Below are positions 33,150-42,019 of a stretch of 64,000 bases of DNA, piece by piece. The stretch covers positions 54,560 to 118,559 of the forward strand of contig JAZDCZ010000409.1 of the NCBI GenBank assembly GCA_036679605.1, written 5' to 3'. This stretch comes from Gemmatimonadota bacterium. GTDB lineage: Bacteria; Gemmatimonadota; Gemmatimonadetes; Gemmatimonadales; GWC2-71-9. The notes under the pieces are model-generated. The model saw only the letters and a program-made list of their open reading frames with translations. It ran no database searches and was not told the origin of the DNA. How positions within the stretch are numbered: position 1 is the stretch's first letter; each line of letters starts with the position of its first letter. Made by a program: the position numbers and the translations under genes.

Positions 33150-34024
33150 CGCGACTCCCTTGTTGCAAAGACAAAGCGCGAACGCCCGAAAAGATCGGAT
33201 TCAATTCGCGCATTTTCCCACCCGCTGTCGATTGCCAGCTCAAGTGTACGTTCCGCTCTCGTTGAATCTAGCTCAAACGCGACGAGCCCGCCCGGATTAA
33301 GACAATCCGTCGCGGTTTCGAATAACTCCCGCAAATGATGCAGCCCATCCGGTCCACCCACAAGCGCTTCGCGAGGCTCATAATCTCTGATTTCGCGCCC
33401 CAACGATTCGTATTCGGCCTCAGTGATGTAGGGCGGGTTCGACACGATCACATCGAAAGTCTCCCTTTCCAAGGCATCGAGCAAATGTCCCGACTTCAGT
33501 TCGATAGACGTTCGGGAAGACACGGCTGCAACGTTGTCGGCAGCGACTTGTAGGGCATTCGCCCATCGATCAGTGGCGACGATCCTGGAGAACGATCCCT
33601 CGCACGCCAGACTCAGAGCAATACAGCCACTGCCCGTTCCGATGTCCGCAGCACTGCCCCACGGCTCATCACCCCAACGAAGTCTCGCCCAATCTAGTAC
33701 GTGACCGACCAGGCTCTCTGTCTCGGGCCGCGGAATGAGGACTCTGCGATCGACCGATAGGTCCAGGTGCCGGAAGCCTGCCGTACCAACCACATAACAT
33801 CGCGGCTCACCCTCAGAGCGTTGCCTTATCGCGATTCGAAAGCTGTCGCACTGCCTCTCATCCGCCACGTCATCGCCCAGCAGAAACACCTCACCTACCT
33901 GAACGCCGGCCAGATCGGCCCAGATGGCAGTCGCCTCGCGCCTCGCACTCGATATACCCGCATTGTGCAAAGTACGAGCGGCGTCGCCCACCGCCTCAGC
34001 AATAGAGGTCTCCGTCCTGATCAA
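33146..34024 (-). CDS. prmC: Release factor glutamine methyltransferase
   Basis: [30 protein letters not shown]; follows prfA. Confidence 0.96.
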
Positions 34025-34979
34025 GTGGCTATCTGCTCTCCCTCGTAGGCAAGACGGAGTGCGTCAATAATTTCGTCTAAGTCGCCCGTCAGAACGCTGT
34101 CCAGTGAATGGACCGTCATATTGATGCGATGGTCTGTTACACGATTCTGGGGAAAGTTGTAGGTGCGGATCTTGGCAGACCGATCTCCCGTACCAACCAT
34201 CGCTCGCCGCTCTTGACTCCGCGAAGCCTCCTGCTCAGCCACTAGACGGTCCAGCAGGCGGGCTCGCAGCACCTCCATCGCCTTGATCTTGTTCTGCAGC
34301 TGGGATTTCTGATCTTGGCATTGAACCACCACATTAGTCGGCAGATGCGTTATGCGAACCGCACTATCGGTCGTATTGACGCTTTGGCCACCGGGACCCG
34401 AGGATCGAAACACATCGATCTTAAGATCCTTCTCGTCGATGCCTACATCCACCTCTTCTGCTTCCGGCAGAACCGCTACGGTGGCTGCCGACGTATGGAT
34501 GCGACCCTGCGCCTCTGTTGCCGGCACGCGCTGCACCCTGTGAACACCGGACTCATGTCTCAGATGCCCGTATGCACTTGGTCCTTTAACCATGAAGGCC
34601 ACCTCCCTCAAACCACCTACGTTGCCTTCCGACAGCGATACGGGATCGAGGGTCCACCCCCGGCGCTCAACGTAGCGCATATACATGCGGTACAGATCTG
34701 CCGCGAATAGGGCCGCTTCATCTCCTCCGGTACCGGCCCGAATCTCCACGATAGTATTGCGGTCATTGAGTGGATCTGGTGGCACAAGCAGCTGACGTAC
34801 CTGGCGTTCGAGACTCTCCACTTCTGGTGCGAGCCGCTGCATATCATTCCGAGCCAGCTCGGCCTGTACTCTCGACCAAGCGTCTTGAGCATAGCCGAAT
34901 CGCGCGTGGTGGCAGGGTCCGCCAGCTGTCGCTCTATGTCCGCCACGCGCTCGAGCGCGGCCTTGAGCCGCGCCTCCAT
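34021..34979 (-). pseudogene. prfA: Peptide chain release factor 1, split across two frames near 34865 (real lesion or assembly error)
   Basis: First 38 aa (MEARL...LGREY) are in one frame; [11 protein letters not shown]... with [24 protein letters not shown] and RTYNFPQ is in another. Span of 959 nt is not a multiple of 3. Confidence 0.85.
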
Positions 34980-35292: not shown

Positions 35293-35321
35293 TTGACAGC
35301 CCCACTGGCCTAGATTAATCT
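35293..35321 (+). promoter_or_regulatory. Sigma70-type promoter for the crp gene
   Basis: TTGACA-17 nt-TAATCT; favours ATG 35351 over TTG 35321 as the start. Confidence 0.6.
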
Positions 35322-35350: not shown

Positions 35351-36022
35351 ATGTCGGTGGAGCAAACCCTCCGCAGTGTTCCCCTCTTTGCGGATCTGAA
35401 CGATGACGAGATGGACAGGCTCTGTCGCACAATGCGGACGAAGAGCTATCCCAAGAACAGTGTGATCGTCTTCGAGGATGATCCGGGTGACGCCCTATAT
35501 GTGGTGAGCAGCGGACAGGTGAAGGTCGTGTTGATTGGCGAGGACGGGCGCGAAGTCATCCTCTCCGTGTTGGGTGAGGGCGATTTTTTTGGAGAGATGG
35601 CTCTAATTGACGATCAACCCAGATCCGCACACGTGATGGCGATGGAGGACTCCAAAGTACTTGTCCTCTATCGAGACGACTTTCATCGCTGCCTCGAAGA
35701 AGCTCCACGGATGGCCCTCGGATTGCTGCGACAGCTTTCCCGCCGACTGCGTAGTGCAGATGACAAGATTGGGGGACTGGTCCTGCTTGACGTTCCCGGC
35801 CGCGTTGCACGCATATTGATTCAGCTAGCCGATGAAGGAGACGGGGTTGTGATCAGCCGCCGCATTACGCATCACACCCTCGCGCAGATGGTCGGATCCA
35901 GTCGAGAAACCGTCTCTCGGACCATCAAGGATCTATCGACCAACGGCCTGGTCGCGGTCACCAAATCAACCATCGAAATCCAAGATCGCGCGCGACTCGA
36001 GACGTTGGGCGGACTGACGTGA
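35351..36022 (+). CDS. Crp/Fnr family regulator (cAMP-receptor type)
   Basis: cNMP pocket FFGEMALID..PRSA, RRLR, HTH recognition helix SRETVSR; no FNR-type Cys cluster. Confidence 0.93.
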   Translation: MSVEQTLRSVPLFADLNDDEMDRLCRTMRTKSYPKNSVIVFEDDPGDALYVVSSGQVKVVLIGEDGREVILSVLGEGDFFGEMALIDDQPRSAHVMAMEDSKVLVLYRDDFHRCLEEAPRMALGLLRQLSRRLRSADDKIGGLVLLDVPGRVARILIQLADEGDGVVISRRITHHTLAQMVGSSRETVSRTIKDLSTNGLVAVTKSTIEIQDRARLETLGGLT

Positions 36023-36033
36023 GCCAGGTCACG
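36018..36033. promoter_or_regulatory. CRP-type box
   Basis: CGTGA-GCCAGG-TCACG (palindromic arms; consensus TGTGA-N6-TCACA), upstream of a possible TTGCCG-18 nt-TACCTT promoter. Confidence 0.6.
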
Positions 36034-36111
36034 GCAACCGCGTGATCAAGTGACTTGCCGTCGGCTCCTTCCTAGCGATACCTTGAGATCACCTATGACT
36101 AACCAGAGAAC

Positions 36112-36987
36112 ATGGCGTTTACAGTAAGGTTCTGGGGCGCCCGGGGATCTATACCCACCCCGGGACCGCTCACCAGCCGTTACGGGGGGAACACGCCGTG
36201 TCTCTCGGTGGAGGGTGACAATGGGACCTCGGGAAGCCGAGTGATCCTGGACGCCGGTACGGGCATCCGGTTGCTCGGTAAGGAGCTGATTGAACGGACC
36301 GCTGGGACGGTGAGTGTGGACCTCCTGCTGAGCCATACGCATTGGGATCACATACAAGGGTTACCGTTCTTCGCTCCGTTCTTTGGAGCCGGCAACCAAA
36401 TACGCATCTGGGGACCGCCGCAGGGTAAAGTTGGACTGGAGAAGATTATGCGACTCCTGATGGATCCAGTAGTGTTTCCGGTGCCGCTCGATAAGTTGGC
36501 GGCCGAGCTGAGCATAACGCATGTTGAGTCGCAAGACGTTGATATTGATGGCTTTACAATACGTACGGTGCGGCTGCGCCATCCCGGCCACACCCTGGGG
36601 TACCGCCTGACTCCACGGGATGGAGGCGCGAGTTTTGCTTACATAACTGACAATGAACTGGGACCTGGGGGCGACTATGACGTGGGCCCGGCGTGGAGAC
36701 AGGAGCTAGTCGATTTTCTGTCGGGTGCGGAGGTGATGGTCCACGATGCGATGTATACGCCCGCCGAACTGGACGGGCATCGTGGCTGGGGTCATTCATC
36801 GAACCACGAGGCCGTCGCCCTAGCTCAAGACGCTGGGGTGGGTAGATTGGTATTGTTTCACCATCTCCCGGAACACAGCGACGAGGACATGGACAAGTTT
36901 GTACAGGAAGCGCGGATTACAGCAGACGGACTGGGCCAGCCGCTGGAAGTGATTGCGGCCACGGAAGGTCTAGAACTGACGCTTTGA
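36112..36987 (+). CDS. MBL-fold metallohydrolase, putative cyclic-nucleotide phosphodiesterase
   Basis: FWGARGSIP, YGGNTPC, LDAGTG, SHTHWDHIQG, TDNE, HDA, WGHS, FHH. Confidence 0.85.
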   Translation: MAFTVRFWGARGSIPTPGPLTSRYGGNTPCLSVEGDNGTSGSRVILDAGTGIRLLGKELIERTAGTVSVDLLLSHTHWDHIQGLPFFAPFFGAGNQIRIWGPPQGKVGLEKIMRLLMDPVVFPVPLDKLAAELSITHVESQDVDIDGFTIRTVRLRHPGHTLGYRLTPRDGGASFAYITDNELGPGGDYDVGPAWRQELVDFLSGAEVMVHDAMYTPAELDGHRGWGHSSNHEAVALAQDAGVGRLVLFHHLPEHSDEDMDKFVQEARITADGLGQPLEVIAATEGLELTL

Positions 36988-37001
36988 GAGAGGATAAAAC
37001 T

Positions 37002-37694
37002 ATGAAGTGGCGCTCAGCTTTTGCCCTGCTTCTCGCCGCTGCGTTTGCGGCGCCGCAGTTGGCGGCGGCACAGGACACTCGACCAGGCATTGGAGTACTG
37101 CCGTTTGAGAATGGGGGGTCGATCGGAGTCGACCGAGAGGACTTGGAGGCATTCAGCGTTGGCCTACAGCAAATGCTGATTACCGAGTTGGCCTTCAATG
37201 GTGAGCTTCGGATCGTAGACCGAACCAATCTGCACCAGCTAATGGAGGAGCAAGACCTGGGAGCCGCAGGCCGGGTGAGTGCTGAAACGGCCGCCAGAAT
37301 CGGCAAGATTGTTGGAGCCAAGTACATGATCCTTGGCGGCTTCATCGACTTCAACGCCCAACTGCGGATCGATGCCCGGGTGGTCGATGTCGAGACGACC
37401 GAGATCATCAAGGTCCAACGACAGCGCGACAAGCGTGATAACATGTACGAGATTGTGGTGGACTTGGCAAACAATCTCACCAAGGGCCTTGAGTTGCCGG
37501 CGCTCTCTCGGCAGGCGTTCAACCAGCGCAAGGAGCGCAAGGTCCCGTCGAAGGCAGTCAAGTTGTACATGAAGGGTCTGGTTTACCAGAACATCGGTAA
37601 CAACGAAAAGGCTGCCGAGCTGTTCAGCCAAGCTTCCGAGATCTTCCCCGAGTACACGGAAGCCAAGGAAGCACTCAAGCAAACCAAGAGTTAG
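37002..37694 (+). CDS. Secreted CsgG/HfaB-like (TolB-N fold) protein with C-terminal TPR
   Basis: Signal peptide (AAA-Q), VLPFEN, IVDRTNL..LMEEQDL, ARIGKIVGAKY, IDARVVDVET, TPR-like tail. Confidence 0.85.
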   Translation: MKWRSAFALLLAAAFAAPQLAAAQDTRPGIGVLPFENGGSIGVDREDLEAFSVGLQQMLITELAFNGELRIVDRTNLHQLMEEQDLGAAGRVSAETAARIGKIVGAKYMILGGFIDFNAQLRIDARVVDVETTEIIKVQRQRDKRDNMYEIVVDLANNLTKGLELPALSRQAFNQRKERKVPSKAVKLYMKGLVYQNIGNNEKAAELFSQASEIFPEYTEAKEALKQTKS

Positions 37695-37706
37695 CGCGCT
37701 AGACGT

Positions 37707-38489
37707 GTGCTGACTCCAGTAGCCGCGCTCGGAGGTCGTCTAATCCGTGCCATTGCCCAGTTTGGGGCAATGGCACGGTTTTGCGTAGGATCCATTGTCA
37801 GCTGGCGTTGGTTACCCAAGGCCGGCCGTAGGGTCGTTCTCAGAGTCCTATTCAAGCAAGTTTGGTTTACAGCGGTTCAGGCAATCCCGGTAGTGGTAAT
37901 CCTGGCCGGCATCCTTAGCTTCTTGCTCATCTCCCAGGCGATCCGTGAACTCGGCCGACTGGGAGCGACGGAGTTGATTGGACGGTTAGTGGTGGTCGCC
38001 ATCATACGCGAGCTTGGCCCGCTGGTCACCGCACTCATCGTGACCGGCCGGTCTGGGACGGCAATTGCCGCCGAACTCGCTACCAATAAGGTGATGGGAG
38101 AAGTTAGATCCCTTGAGAGCATGGGCATCGACCCCGCCCATTACCTGATCCTCCCCCGCTTCGGTGGCGCGATCGTGTCGATGTTTGGACTGATAATCGT
38201 GTTCGACCTGGTCGCAGTCATGGCAGGCCTGGTAGCGGCCACCTTCAACAACATGACCAGTGGAACATACTTTGAGATTGTGCTCAACAGTCTGGCGTTC
38301 CAGGATGTTTGGCTCACTCTCGCCAAGGGACTGATGTTCGGCATTATTGTCGGGGTGATCCCGAGTTTTCACGGCCTCTCGGTGCATCGCGCCGCAACGG
38401 AGGTTCCAGTTGCGGCAAGCCGCGCTGTGGTGGCGAGTATCATCGCCATCTTCCTTACCTCTGGACTTTTTGTCGCAGTGAGCCTCTGA
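37707..38489 (+). CDS. mlaE: MlaE-family ABC permease
   Basis: IRELGPLVTALIVTGRSGTAIAAEL, MGIDP..YLILPR, KGLMFG, VP.AASRAVV. Confidence 0.93.
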   Translation: MLTPVAALGGRLIRAIAQFGAMARFCVGSIVSWRWLPKAGRRVVLRVLFKQVWFTAVQAIPVVVILAGILSFLLISQAIRELGRLGATELIGRLVVVAIIRELGPLVTALIVTGRSGTAIAAELATNKVMGEVRSLESMGIDPAHYLILPRFGGAIVSMFGLIIVFDLVAVMAGLVAATFNNMTSGTYFEIVLNSLAFQDVWLTLAKGLMFGIIVGVIPSFHGLSVHRAATEVPVAASRAVVASIIAIFLTSGLFVAVSL

Positions 38490-39163
38490 TGAGCGAAGCT
38501 CCTCTGGTTTTCGAGAACGTTGGGGTTGCCGGACTGAACGGCACCGGGATATCTCTCGAGGTGCCCGCAGCCTCGGCGACGGCGGTTGTCGGAGACGACG
38601 TGAGCGGAGTCGAATTGCTGGGACAATATGCTCTTGGCCTTGACCAACCACCCAGCGGCCGCGCGATGGTCTTCGGTGAAGATATTTGCCAGATGAACCG
38701 CCACCAAGCTCTCGCCTTCCGTCGATCCGTGGGCTACCTTCCCGCCGGCGACGGGCTGTTGCAAAACCTTTGCCTACTGGACAACATCGCTCTCCCGCTC
38801 CGCTACGGCAGCGACATGAAAGAGCGAGAGATGGACAGCAGAATAGAAATCATGCTTGCGATGGTGTCACTGAAAGACGCGGCTGGCCTCAGACCGGCCC
38901 AGGCTACGGAAGAACAGTGCCGGCGCGCTGCTCTTGCTCGAGCCCTGGCGTTCGATCCAAAACTGGTGATTCTAGAACAGCCTTTTGGCGGTCTTGCCTC
39001 GGAGGCGAGTAGAGATCTGTTGGAAATCGCACGTGGCGGTGAGACCAGCGGGGGCTGCAGACGGTGCGTATTCATTACCGCACCGTTTATGCCGGAGCGC
39101 TTGAAGCCGCGCATAGAGCACCACTATCGAATTGCCAAAGGTCAATTGGAACCCTACACTTGA
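38489..39163 (+). CDS. MlaF-like ABC ATPase homolog with degenerate catalytic motifs
   Basis: ABC scaffold (PPSGRAMVFGED, DNIALPL, RAALARALAFDPKLVIL) but Walker A reads GDDVSGVE, signature ATEEQ, Walker B ILEQP. Confidence 0.85.
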   Translation: MSEAPLVFENVGVAGLNGTGISLEVPAASATAVVGDDVSGVELLGQYALGLDQPPSGRAMVFGEDICQMNRHQALAFRRSVGYLPAGDGLLQNLCLLDNIALPLRYGSDMKEREMDSRIEIMLAMVSLKDAAGLRPAQATEEQCRRAALARALAFDPKLVILEQPFGGLASEASRDLLEIARGGETSGGCRRCVFITAPFMPERLKPRIEHHYRIAKGQLEPYT

Positions 39164-39176
39164 GGAGCGGGGAGCT

Positions 39177-40082
39177 GTGAAACCCAGACTAGCCGATTTT
39201 CTGGTCGGCATCTTCGTCCTAGTGAGTGTGGGCGTCACGATAGGTGCCCTGCTTCTCACCAGCGATTTCGGTGAGACACGCTACGATCTCTTCCTGCGTT
39301 CTGAGACTGCTCAGGGCTTGAGCGAGGATATGAAGGTGATCCTCAGGGGCCTTACCGTTGGGAGGATCACTGAAGTGAACCCGGTGATCGATCCTGCCAG
39401 TGGTGACTTGAGTTTTGTGTCGCGGCTGTCTATCCAAGCAAATTTTGCCGACGGAACTTCTCTCACACTTCCAACCACCACTAGCGCGGTTATCGCACAG
39501 CCGTCACCTATTGGGGGATCTGTTATTGAGCTTGTCATTCCACCAGGTGCAACGCGAGATAATGCCTTAGTCGCAGGAGATACTCTCACGGCGGAGCGCA
39601 GGGGAGGCGCCGTGGACGCACTAACGGAAATGGCAACGCAGTTGAGTGTGGAGGTTCCAAGACTGTTGCGCGAAGCGCAAGAGCTAATAGATGCGGCCGA
39701 GAACACGATCCAAGATGCAGGCTCTCTTATATCGACAACGAGACCAGAAATAAGGGCAACGCTGCGACAGGTGTCTAGCACCTTGGCCAGCTTCGAGCTG
39801 CTCGCACAGGATCAAAATGCTCGGCTCGGGACCCTTCACGACTCACTATCTCTTGTGTTGGCCGATGCCCGCGGGATGATCCAGCGGTTTGACAGCCTGG
39901 CAGCTTCGGCGGAGCTAATGAGTGAAGAGAACCGCGGGCTCATCCACTCCACGATGCAGAGCATCTCTCGGTCGACCGACGTTCTATCGAATTTTGCCGA
40001 GCAATTGAGCCGCCGCCCACTCCGCCTTCTCACCGGGGTCAAACCTCCGCCCGATCCAAGTGACACTACGGAGCAGCACTGA
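39177..40082 (+). CDS. mlaD: MlaD/MCE family protein with helical extension
   Basis: VGIFVL TM anchor, GL...KVILRGLTVGRI, IELVIP, coiled coil ending P.RLLTG. Confidence 0.88.
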   Translation: MKPRLADFLVGIFVLVSVGVTIGALLLTSDFGETRYDLFLRSETAQGLSEDMKVILRGLTVGRITEVNPVIDPASGDLSFVSRLSIQANFADGTSLTLPTTTSAVIAQPSPIGGSVIELVIPPGATRDNALVAGDTLTAERRGGAVDALTEMATQLSVEVPRLLREAQELIDAAENTIQDAGSLISTTRPEIRATLRQVSSTLASFELLAQDQNARLGTLHDSLSLVLADARGMIQRFDSLAASAELMSEENRGLIHSTMQSISRSTDVLSNFAEQLSRRPLRLLTGVKPPPDPSDTTEQH

Positions 40083-42019
40083 TGGACCTTACGCTGCTAC
40101 ACACGGCAGACTTCCCAATCAACTCTATCGCCGAAGCTCTGGACACCGACGGTGTCATCCGTGTTCTCATACGGTCAACGAGCCAATTGGCAGTCGGCGA
40201 TAACCCGACCTTGTTTATTCTAGACCCAGGCAGCCGAAAACAGTTCACGAGCAGCATGCGCTCGTTCGTCAGTGCCGGAGGCGGGATCGTCGCGATTGGC
40301 GAGGACGGGGAGCGTGACGTTCCATCGGAACTGGACCAGGAACTCCTGACGACTTTTGTTCAGCAGCCATGCGGCAAGCGACAACTCCTCCTCGCACTCA
40401 GGATGGCATACAAGCATGTGGCCGCGCGCGCTGAGACTGTACGAGCCAAGAAAGAGGCGGCGAGCCGGACGCAGGAGATCCACGAGCTAACTCGCATAGG
40501 CATGGCCCTGGCGACGGAGCGCGATTACAACTCGCTGCTGGATCTCATACTGACTCAGGCCCGTCGATTGACGTCCTCTGACGCGGCCAGCTTGTATCTG
40601 GTCGAACAGCAGGACGGCGAGCCTGATCAACTCCGGTTCAAGTTGTCGCAGACCTATTCGCGTCCCGACATTCCTCTAGTAGAATTCACGATTCCGATTA
40701 ATAAGTCCAGCATAGCGGGATACGTCGCCACTACTGCCGAACCACTCGTCATCGACGATGCTTACTTCCTGCCACCAGACTCCGAGTACACGATCAACCG
40801 CACCATCGATCGCAAATACAGTTATCGGACGAAATCGATCCTTACGATTCCAATGACCGACCACCAAGGTGATGTCATCGGAGTTCTTCAACTCATCAAC
40901 CGCAAGCGTGATTACAAGGCTCAGCTAGAAACCGAGTCAGACTTCGATACCCAGGTCATCCCATACACACGTCGTCTCGTAGAGTTGGTATCCGCTCTGG
41001 CTGGACAGGCCGCAGTATCGATTGAAAACAGCCAACTCTATGAAGACATAGAGCGCCTCTTTGAAGGTTTTGTGCGAGCCTCGGTAACGGCCATCGAGCA
41101 GCGAGACCCCACTACATTCGGTCATTCCGGGAGAGTCGCGGGGATGACCCTTGGACTTGCGCAGGTAGTCGACCGCGCAACCGACGGCCCCTACCGCAAC
41201 ACCAAGTTCTCACGTGAGGAGATTCGGGAACTCAGATACGCAGGATTGCTGCACGACTTTGGAAAAGTTGGCGTGAGAGAGCAGGTTCTGGTAAAGGCCA
41301 AGAAACTCTATCCGCCAGACCTCTCTCAGCTAAAGCAGCGCTACGCCTTTATTCGTCGTACCTCCGATAAGGAATTCTACCGGAAGAGAATGGAATTCCT
41401 GGAGGAGTCGGGCCGAGACGGCTACGACGGATTTGTACGAGACTTGACGGCAGAGCACGACAGCCAACTCGAGGAACTCGATCATTTCATGAAGTTGATC
41501 ATCGAGTCGAACGAACCCAGCGTGCTGCCGGAAGGGAGCTTCGAGGAGTTACTCGAATACGCCAATCGTTTTTATGTGGATCTCGACGGCGCCGAGCAGC
41601 CGTATTTAGCGGAAGATGAAGTTCGGTTTCTATCGATCAGAAAAGGGAGCTTGGACGAATCTGAACGCCTGGAGATCGAGAGCCACGTCGCACACACCTT
41701 CCGTTTCCTGCAACAGATTCCGTGGACTAAAGAATTGAGTGCGATCCCGAAGATCGCATTTGGACACCACGAGAAGCTCAATGGCAGCGGCTATCCCAGC
41801 CGGGTGAAGGCGGCCGACATTCCGGTTCAGACCCGCATGATGACGATCTCAGATATTTTCGACGCTCTTACCGCCTCAGATCGCCCTTACAAGCGGGCGG
41901 TGCCCCTCGACAGAGCCCTCGATATTCTTGGATTCGAGGTTAAGGATGGCATGCTGGATGAAGATCTCCTCAAATTGTTCGTGGAAGGGAAGGTCTTCGA
42001 GACGGAATTGGGCGACTAG
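40082..42019 (+). CDS. GAF + HD-GYP phosphodiesterase with degenerate N-terminal REC-like region
   Basis: GAF (SIAGYVA, IGVLQLINRK, AAVSIEN), GHSGRV, LHDFGK, HHEKLNGSGYP, DIFDALT..RPYK. Confidence 0.93.
   Translation: MDLTLLHTADFPINSIAEALDTDGVIRVLIRSTSQLAVGDNPTLFILDPGSRKQFTSSMRSFVSAGGGIVAIGEDGERDVPSELDQELLTTFVQQPCGKRQLLLALRMAYKHVAARAETVRAKKEAASRTQEIHELTRIGMALATERDYNSLLDLILTQARRLTSSDAASLYLVEQQDGEPDQLRFKLSQTYSRPDIPLVEFTIPINKSSIAGYVATTAEPLVIDDAYFLPPDSEYTINRTIDRKYSYRTKSILTIPMTDHQGDVIGVLQLINRKRDYKAQLETESDFDTQVIPYTRRLVELVSALAGQAAVSIENSQLYEDIERLFEGFVRASVTAIEQRDPTTFGHSGRVAGMTLGLAQVVDRATDGPYRNTKFSREEIRELRYAGLLHDFGKVGVREQVLVKAKKLYPPDLSQLKQRYAFIRRTSDKEFYRKRMEFLEESGRDGYDGFVRDLTAEHDSQLEELDHFMKLIIESNEPSVLPEGSFEELLEYANRFYVDLDGAEQPYLAEDEVRFLSIRKGSLDESERLEIESHVAHTFRFLQQIPWTKELSAIPKIAFGHHEKLNGSGYPSRVKAADIPVQTRMMTISDIFDALTASDRPYKRAVPLDRALDILGFEVKDGMLDEDLLKLFVEGKVFETELGD

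Follow-up and report, generated by a model that had tools for sequence, protein, structure and literature searches.

Results

A conserved operon with an MCE module and two predicted phosphodiesterases

The stretch of DNA analyzed here (the window) comprises 64,000 nucleotides of contig JAZDCZ010000409.1 from an uncultured Gemmatimonadota bacterium of the order Gemmatimonadales (assembly GCA_036679605.1). Our subject is an operon at positions 35,351 to 42,019, whose seven open reading frames, all on the plus strand, encode a Crp-family regulator, an MBL-fold hydrolase, a secreted CsgG/TPR protein, the permease MlaE, an MlaF-like protein without ATPase motifs (MlaF*), the MCE protein MlaD and a GAF/HD-GYP protein. 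Crp and the MBL gene are 89 nt apart; from there on, the genes are separated by 14 and 12 nt, a TGA/ATG overlap (38,489), 13 nt, and a second overlap (40,082). Pfam bears out the gene families, and the description in an initial annotation of this DNA, crp followed by six co-oriented, tightly spaced or overlapping genes, agrees with the reading frames, the gaps and the domains.

The operon is real and conserved. Conservation of the neighborhood had been named as a check in that annotation, and the complete seven-gene order is found in 39 of 47 related loci inspected (25 from relatives, 4 additional ones and 18 picked from a phylum-wide draw); seven end at a contig edge, and one (L063) lacks only csgG. 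This is more than chance would preserve, and we reject a single-genome accident. MlaF* orthologs (E < 1e-45) are present in 25 of 60 relatives searched. The draw across the phylum, 301 genomes including this one, gave 43 genomes with an ortholog: 39 of 125 in the same family, all 3 genomes drawn from another family, and 0 of 172 in ten others. As only nine candidates per genome were scored, some orthologs may have been missed. In every inspected Gemmatimonadota locus with mlaE, mlaF* and mlaD (the module) whose contig extends far enough, the HD-GYP gene lies 3' of mlaD.

Because the assembly is large (6.7 Mb, exceeding most relatives) and 6.3% contaminated, relatives were consulted for unlinked genes. 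Elsewhere, the genome has two further mlaEFD sets with intact ATPase; an RNase Z-like gene (L057:8616-9536), another MBL-fold neighbor, comes after the set on contig C251. No mlaA, mlaB or mlaC gene lies within the locus, as first annotated, and genome-wide there are no MlaA matches and two MlaC-family matches, both unlinked. Outside Proteobacteria, an MlaEFD unit by itself is the usual arrangement (PMC10665443), so the absence of mlaABC is uninformative and we reject it as a sign of novelty.

MlaF* is a conserved pseudo-ATPase

Predicted model, fold match, motif count and dN/dS together identify MlaF* (38,489–39,163, plus strand) as an ABC-fold pseudo-ATPase. Its P-loop reads G35-DDVSG-V41-E42, with both the Lys and the Ser/Thr gone; the Q-loop Gln is replaced by Ala86, the signature position reads ATEEQ, Walker B is E163-Q164 without an Asp-Glu pair, and the H-loop His is missing. 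Each of the four canonical motifs (Walker A, signature, Walker B, H-loop) is found in 0 of 48 MlaF* copies, while Walker A, LSGG and DEP are all retained in 21 of 21 control canonical nucleotide-binding domains (NBDs). The dead ATPase of the initial annotation is thus borne out, and none of the orthologs examined is intact. The predicted model nevertheless has the full ABC fold (pLDDT 92.7) and is closest to E. coli MlaF (TM 0.80–0.87).

A pseudogene in decay was considered and rejected, because dN/dS is low (0.13–0.23 in five pairs, similar to 0.12–0.24 for the HD-GYP gene) and the gene is kept in 48 copies. Conservation peaks at the RRxxGY/Q-loop stretch (0.88) and is 0.49 in the N-terminal strands; the Q-loop region of ABC ATPases faces the membrane subunit. 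Since MlaF* has lost every ATP-handling motif and yet stays conserved, the envelope machine likely works without ATP, and related machines in other bacteria may do so as well. In one single-contig genome (G171, L271), mlaE and mlaF* are both frameshifted, by sequencing error or early decay.

MlaE belongs to a wider clade with degenerate ATPases

The permease gene (37,707–38,489, plus strand; PF02405, 190 bits) encodes a protein that matches the solved MlaE structures 7ch8 and 6xbd. A profile search yielded distant relatives of MlaF in which some of the motifs are gone, and a metagenome scan with a pattern taken from a non-catalytic stretch gave at least 119 matches. The metagenome figures that follow refer to the 80 loci listed, many on short contigs. 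In 73 of them, mlaE or mlaD is visible. Their 78 NBDs form 44 clusters, 41 of them complete; a script found Walker A in 30 of the complete clusters, the Walker B DE in 24, LSGG in one, the His in 6 and all four in one. By eye, the His is present in nine, and at least one of Walker A, DE and His is absent from 33.

The NBD tree, a quick search, has a weak backbone, and we therefore prefer the MlaE tree, itself a quick tree of 52 rows without the long row L167. It splits 32 rows (the operon and the metagenome partners) from 20 MlaEs that lie beside intact ATPases, with SH-aLRT 100. The intact side includes both canonical MlaEs of this genome, and the metagenome locus with all motifs intact groups there on a long branch. 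Sampling is narrow, as the intact set is mostly from Gemmatimonadota. A coupling-helix motif, xE, occurs in 27 of 27 operon MlaEs, and both canonical MlaEs of the genome have EQ; it is not a clean clade marker, since 6 of 19 MlaEs adjoining intact ATPases share it. The role of the coupling helix in MlaE is described in PMC7790496.

A 28-row alignment of the distant NBDs proved too diverse for searching loci; across 201 genomes it was unspecific and mostly recovered canonical MlaF. A plasmid search gave ordinary ABC ATPase matches only (about 36%), and a Hydrogenophilales match (L067) turned out to be an ordinary intact system.

In 11 of the 36 metagenome loci covered by a Pfam scan, a TPR lipoprotein gene lies 3' of mlaD, possibly encoding an outer-membrane partner of a new type. 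The order mlaE, degenerate mlaF, mlaD, TPR lipoprotein is seen at L143, L159, L168, L177, L199, L205, L209, L213, L217, L141, L162 and L206. A second, apparently single, lineage has a gene of the same MBL family as in the window directly before mlaF and, on contigs long enough to tell, behind mlaE (L146, L147, L157, L160, L161, L171, L175, L187, L197, L198, L200 and L202); its mlaF keeps Walker A, has an altered signature and lacks the His where this is visible. No HD-GYP or CsgG gene was seen in the 80 loci, many of them short. Some degenerate modules (L168, L217, L148, L153, L193, L205) have PilZ, EAL, GGDEF-EAL or MshEN genes close by, at a rate uncontrolled for chance.

Codons 12–25 of mlaE can form a conserved RNA hairpin of 17 pairs (37,742–37,779, plus strand). 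In 23 sequences, 86.7% of the cells are paired, a value reached by 0 of 500 shuffles, and slid controls gave 40–56%; four pairs have two-sided changes, and a T run follows in the window. Kinship and codon pattern may explain part of the signal. The hairpin could modulate how strongly the membrane module is expressed.

MlaD, the CsgG/TPR protein and known MCE systems

MlaD (39,177–40,082, plus strand) is long, with a hydrophobic N-terminal transmembrane helix, an MCE domain (PF02470, 28.5 bits, above cut-off; TIGR00996), a helical region and a conserved C-terminal tail, RRPxRxxxGV. The secreted protein encoded at 37,002–37,694 (plus strand) combines a CsgG fold (PF03783, 67.9 bits) with weak TPR matches, and its signal peptide, read by eye, is followed by no lipobox Cys.

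MlaFEDB of E. coli, A. baumannii and P. aeruginosa (6xbd, 7d06, 7ch8) has the same trio: the permease MlaE, a subunit with the MlaF fold, and an MCE protein anchored in the membrane. The minimal MlaEFD of Veillonella parvula also has a long MlaD and no linked mlaABC (PMC10665443). Unlike in both, the ATPase here is stripped of five motifs (Walker A, Q-loop, signature, Walker B, H-loop), MlaE is placed in a separate clade, and the same Crp-box operon encodes second-messenger enzymes. In P. aeruginosa PA3211-PA3214 and E. coli PqiABC, too, the MCE protein is long and its C-terminal peptide conserved, and the secreted protein co-encoded here is CsgG-like, a fold class related to PqiC (PMC13631591). 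PA3212, however, is described as an ATPase (PMC13631591), unlike MlaF*. By analogy, the CsgG/TPR protein may substitute for a PqiC-type partner. Such a role is weakened by several differences from PqiC: the protein is not a lipoprotein, as outer-membrane partners in PqiC-bridged MCE systems are, because no Cys follows the signal peptide; it carries TPR; it is retained in genomes without the module; and it was lost once (L063) while the module stayed.

Crp, its tandem site and a candidate cAMP source

The regulator (35,351–36,022, plus strand; PF00027 and PF13545) has the features of a cAMP-responsive CRP: a cyclic-nucleotide pocket (GE..RS), an RE..R recognition helix (RETVSR) and a GTGA-N6-TCAC target. 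Its score of 137.9 is under the E. coli CRP equivalog cut-off of 266. The closest solved proteins are 4ev0, 3d0s and 4cyd, mycobacterial and corynebacterial ones among them, and with these relatives and the cyclase described below in mind we infer that the ligand is cAMP. A likely sigma-70 promoter of crp (TTGACA-17 nt-TAATCT, 35,293–35,321, plus strand) was recognized by eye, and most related loci have TTGAC(A) with a TAAGCT-like -10 upstream of crp; a consensus promoter scan did not list it, and nothing in that scan exceeded shuffles.

Crp control of the six genes, proposed in the initial annotation, gains from a conserved predicted site. Box 1 (CGTGA-N6-TCACG, 36,018–36,033, no strand assigned) overlaps the crp stop codon, which forms part of its left half, and it is retained in six loci whose crp stop differs or has moved. 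We found its core in 24 of 25 module loci and in 11 of 12 core loci without the module, with a background of 0.002 per 120 nt, and in 0 of 2 loci where crp-MBL stands without csgG and HD-GYP. In a predicted half-site (36,041–36,056, no strand assigned), GTGA follows box 1 at a distance of 9 nt, a spacing that is exact in 34 of 35 loci carrying box 1. The half-site abuts the -35 of what may be a weak promoter for the six genes (TTGCCG-18 nt-TACCTT, 36,055–36,084, plus strand; by eye, from aligned intergenic regions). The whole tandem pattern occurs in 13 of 17 additional loci and three times in the genome. Since GTGA-N6-TCAC is not enriched genome-wide (111 sites, and 70–166 at other spacers), a large Crp regulon is not visible.

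The related M. tuberculosis CRP (Rv3676) has a similar arrangement at whiB1, with two adjacent sites, a good one upstream and a poorer one at -35 (PMC2844151). The distance between centers is 23 bp here, compared with 21 bp at whiB1, and the positions here would be about -65 and -42, with a guessed start site. At whiB1, one site activates and the other represses (PMC2844151). A second Crp paralog, 60% identical, is encoded at G000:C365:66575-67219 (L058), and either paralog could read the tandem box.

A search for the cognate cyclase, suggested in the initial annotation, led to a class III adenylate cyclase on contig C311 (G000:C311:27270-28916, L260), found in 51 of 61 genomes. This adenylate/guanylate cyclase is a candidate cAMP source; parts of it appear to resemble FHA and GAF domains, and inspection by eye showed no membrane helix. 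GGDEF proteins also occur in the genome.

The MBL and HD-GYP enzymes

The MBL-fold hydrolase (36,112–36,987, plus strand) is of RNase Z/PhnP type and, from motif, fold and homologs, a predicted cyclic-nucleotide phosphodiesterase. Its metal ligands (H75, H77, D79, H80, H157, D212 and H251, with an HxHWDH motif) are invariant in 25 rows, and its fold matches 2cbn, 1zkp, 3g1p, yeast PDE1 and Apyc1. GAF, REC, cyclic-nucleotide-binding or GGDEF domains are present in 117 of the 120 best longer homologs, and 75 of these 117, many near-redundant, have a cyclic-nucleotide-binding domain. Because of these domains, the MBL is likely a signaling enzyme.

The last gene (40,082–42,019, plus strand) encodes a GAF/HD-GYP protein with a degenerate receiver-like N-terminus that only weakly resembles REC (probability 8%, E 0.004). 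From its LHDFGK, HHEKLxGxGYP and RPYK motifs it is a predicted c-di-GMP phosphodiesterase. The metal ligands (HD, HHExxxGxGYP, D) are invariant in 23 rows, and RPYK is present in 41 of 42, the remaining row being incomplete. The RxxK motif is associated with c-di-GMP over cGAMP (10.1101/600031, 10.1101/2021.11.05.467447); as the protein carries RxxK instead of RxxQ/N, we reject cGAMP specificity. The nearest solved relative, PmGH (4mcw), shares GAF and HD-GYP domains, metal ligands and the guanine-selecting RxxK, and differs from the protein here, which has an extra N-terminal domain, an insert of more than 100 residues separating HD from GYP, and Thr344 at the position of the PmGH loop Glu. 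The two phosphodiesterases of the initial annotation have intact motifs; for the MBL the activity is a prediction, with 57.7 bits against the cyclic-nucleotide phosphodiesterase model NF041851, whose cut-off is 400.

The module is an optional part of the operon

An HD-GYP ortholog is present in 40 of the 60 relatives, 15 of them without MlaF*. We inspected 14 of these 15 loci. In 11, crp, MBL, csgG and HD-GYP are joined directly; the others have csgG-HD-GYP near a contig start, MBL-HD-GYP only, or are cut (one each). mlaE, mlaF* and mlaD are retained or lost as a block. At L079:2434-2664, a 76-codon mlaE remnant between csgG and HD-GYP is a scar of module loss. The module label changes 8 times on a quick 34-locus tree, with at least 7 changes forced by well-supported branches, and under midpoint rooting the history reads as one gain with repeated loss, about seven times. 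No columns separate module-bearing from module-less genomes in MBL or CsgG, and ten weak ones do so in HD-GYP. At L087:2524-5307, crp-MBL-csgG is followed not by GAF/HD-GYP but by genes for a pilin-like protein and a membrane sensor with HD-GYP (labels by eye).

Upstream of the operon, prfA (34,021–34,979, minus strand) is about 100 nt short compared with a same-genus genome and out of frame, with a break near 34,864 that is probably an assembly error.

Discussion

We propose, with a rough probability of 0.45, that the operon encodes a cAMP-Crp-controlled, ATP-uncoupled lipid conduit that is co-expressed with signal-terminating enzymes. cAMP from the C311 cyclase would act via Crp at the tandem site and would likely set the amount of conduit. 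MlaE, the ATP-dead MlaF* and the long MlaD would assemble as a passive conduit across the envelope, in which MlaF* would clamp the coupling helix of MlaE in a structural role and lipid would equilibrate without a driving force. The MBL is predicted to remove cyclic nucleotide, ending the cAMP signal, and the HD-GYP protein to lower c-di-GMP; the link between envelope machine and enzymes would be shared regulation, not contact. Block inheritance of mlaE, mlaF* and mlaD speaks for a conduit, as do the conservation peak of MlaF* at the RRxxGY/Q-loop stretch, the wide occurrence of the clade without these enzymes and the two intact mlaEFD sets that the genome keeps for ATP-driven work. The initial annotation had suggested that the complex may be something other than a transporter. 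This does not follow, because ATP-dead MlaFED can move lipid passively: an E. coli MlaFEDB Walker A mutant still takes lipid spontaneously, and MlaFEDB without ATP also passes lipid outward to MlaC (10.1101/2021.05.25.445566).

Several observations weigh against our proposal. The residues that substitute for the P-loop and the signature in MlaF* are themselves conserved (0.72 and 0.75), as would be expected of a new binding surface. By eye, 8 of the 41 metagenome clusters still have Walker A, Walker B and His, so part of the degenerate clade may still hydrolyze ATP. An outer-membrane anchor for MlaD was not identified. Finally, in the second lineage the MBL family (33–39% identical to the window MBL, 12 of 80 loci) sits inside the module, a hint that the link may go beyond common regulation.

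The placement of that MBL is also an argument for the trans-envelope sensor or scaffold proposed in the initial annotation, in which an envelope cue sensed by MlaD and CsgG/TPR would pass through MlaE to MlaF*, which would dock on the MBL or HD-GYP enzyme and adjust its activity. The conserved substitutions in the nucleotide site, the sensory domains fused to the MBL family, the translational coupling of mlaD to the HD-GYP gene and the constant position of the latter would all fit, and PqiC-type partners with a CsgG core fold bind the MCE tail (PMC13631591), which is conserved in this MlaD. We nevertheless consider such a sensor doubtful. Eleven genomes have the four-gene core without the module, the enzymes persisting after at least 7 label changes on the 34-row tree; MBL and CsgG show no discriminating columns; L063 has the module but not CsgG; and 0 of the 120 best longer MBL homologs have an ABC or MlaE domain. 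The wider clade is mostly without the enzymes, the MBL being unseen in 68 of the 80 metagenome loci, with many contigs short. A broader version, about as unlikely, is that in an undescribed and widespread MCE branch the ABC motor has become a pseudo-ATPase relay. In Gemmatimonadales it would pass a signal from the envelope directly to the cAMP- and c-di-GMP-degrading enzymes, and these would switch off the Crp circuit that produces the machine.

The module could also be powered by, or restrain, the intact MlaF of either other mlaEFD operon. A complete ATP site needs a Walker half and a signature half, and as MlaF* has lost both, a heterodimer of MlaF and MlaF* would have no complete site. The two intact mlaF genes exist, as the initial annotation had envisaged, but each is accompanied by its own mlaE and mlaD. 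A conserved dead partner fits poorly with borrowing, and the coupling-helix motif differs between operon and canonical MlaEs, though xE also occurs on the intact side. Even with the precedent of mycobacterial MceG, which serves several Mce systems (PMC9947336), this sharing seems improbable to us. Equally remote is a coupling through substrate, in which the MBL would cleave a phosphodiester-containing molecule delivered by the ATP-free module and thereby supply the driving force. The pairing of MBL and module in two lineages and the RNase Z/PhnP fold of the nearest structures would suit such a role; retention of the MBL in module-less genomes, the mainly signaling domains in its family fusions and the absence of an MBL from most clade members argue against it.

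The operon is apparently undescribed. Our literature search found neither the operon nor a natural ATPase-dead MlaF; supplements and most subscription papers were outside its scope, and the datasets of the MlaEFD survey could list the genes unremarked.

The usual view of MlaE-type MCE systems is that of pumps driven by ATP, and which way lipid flows through them has been disputed. A natural MlaEFD with an ATP-incapable motor under selection would test what an uncoupled machine does, be it passive exchange, outward leak or signaling, and the graded motif decay across the clade is a natural series for such tests. The automatic label “MlaF ATPase” on such proteins is wrong for the dead ones. For a little-studied phylum, the operon offers a concrete cAMP-to-c-di-GMP circuit, with a predicted binding site and a candidate cyclase.

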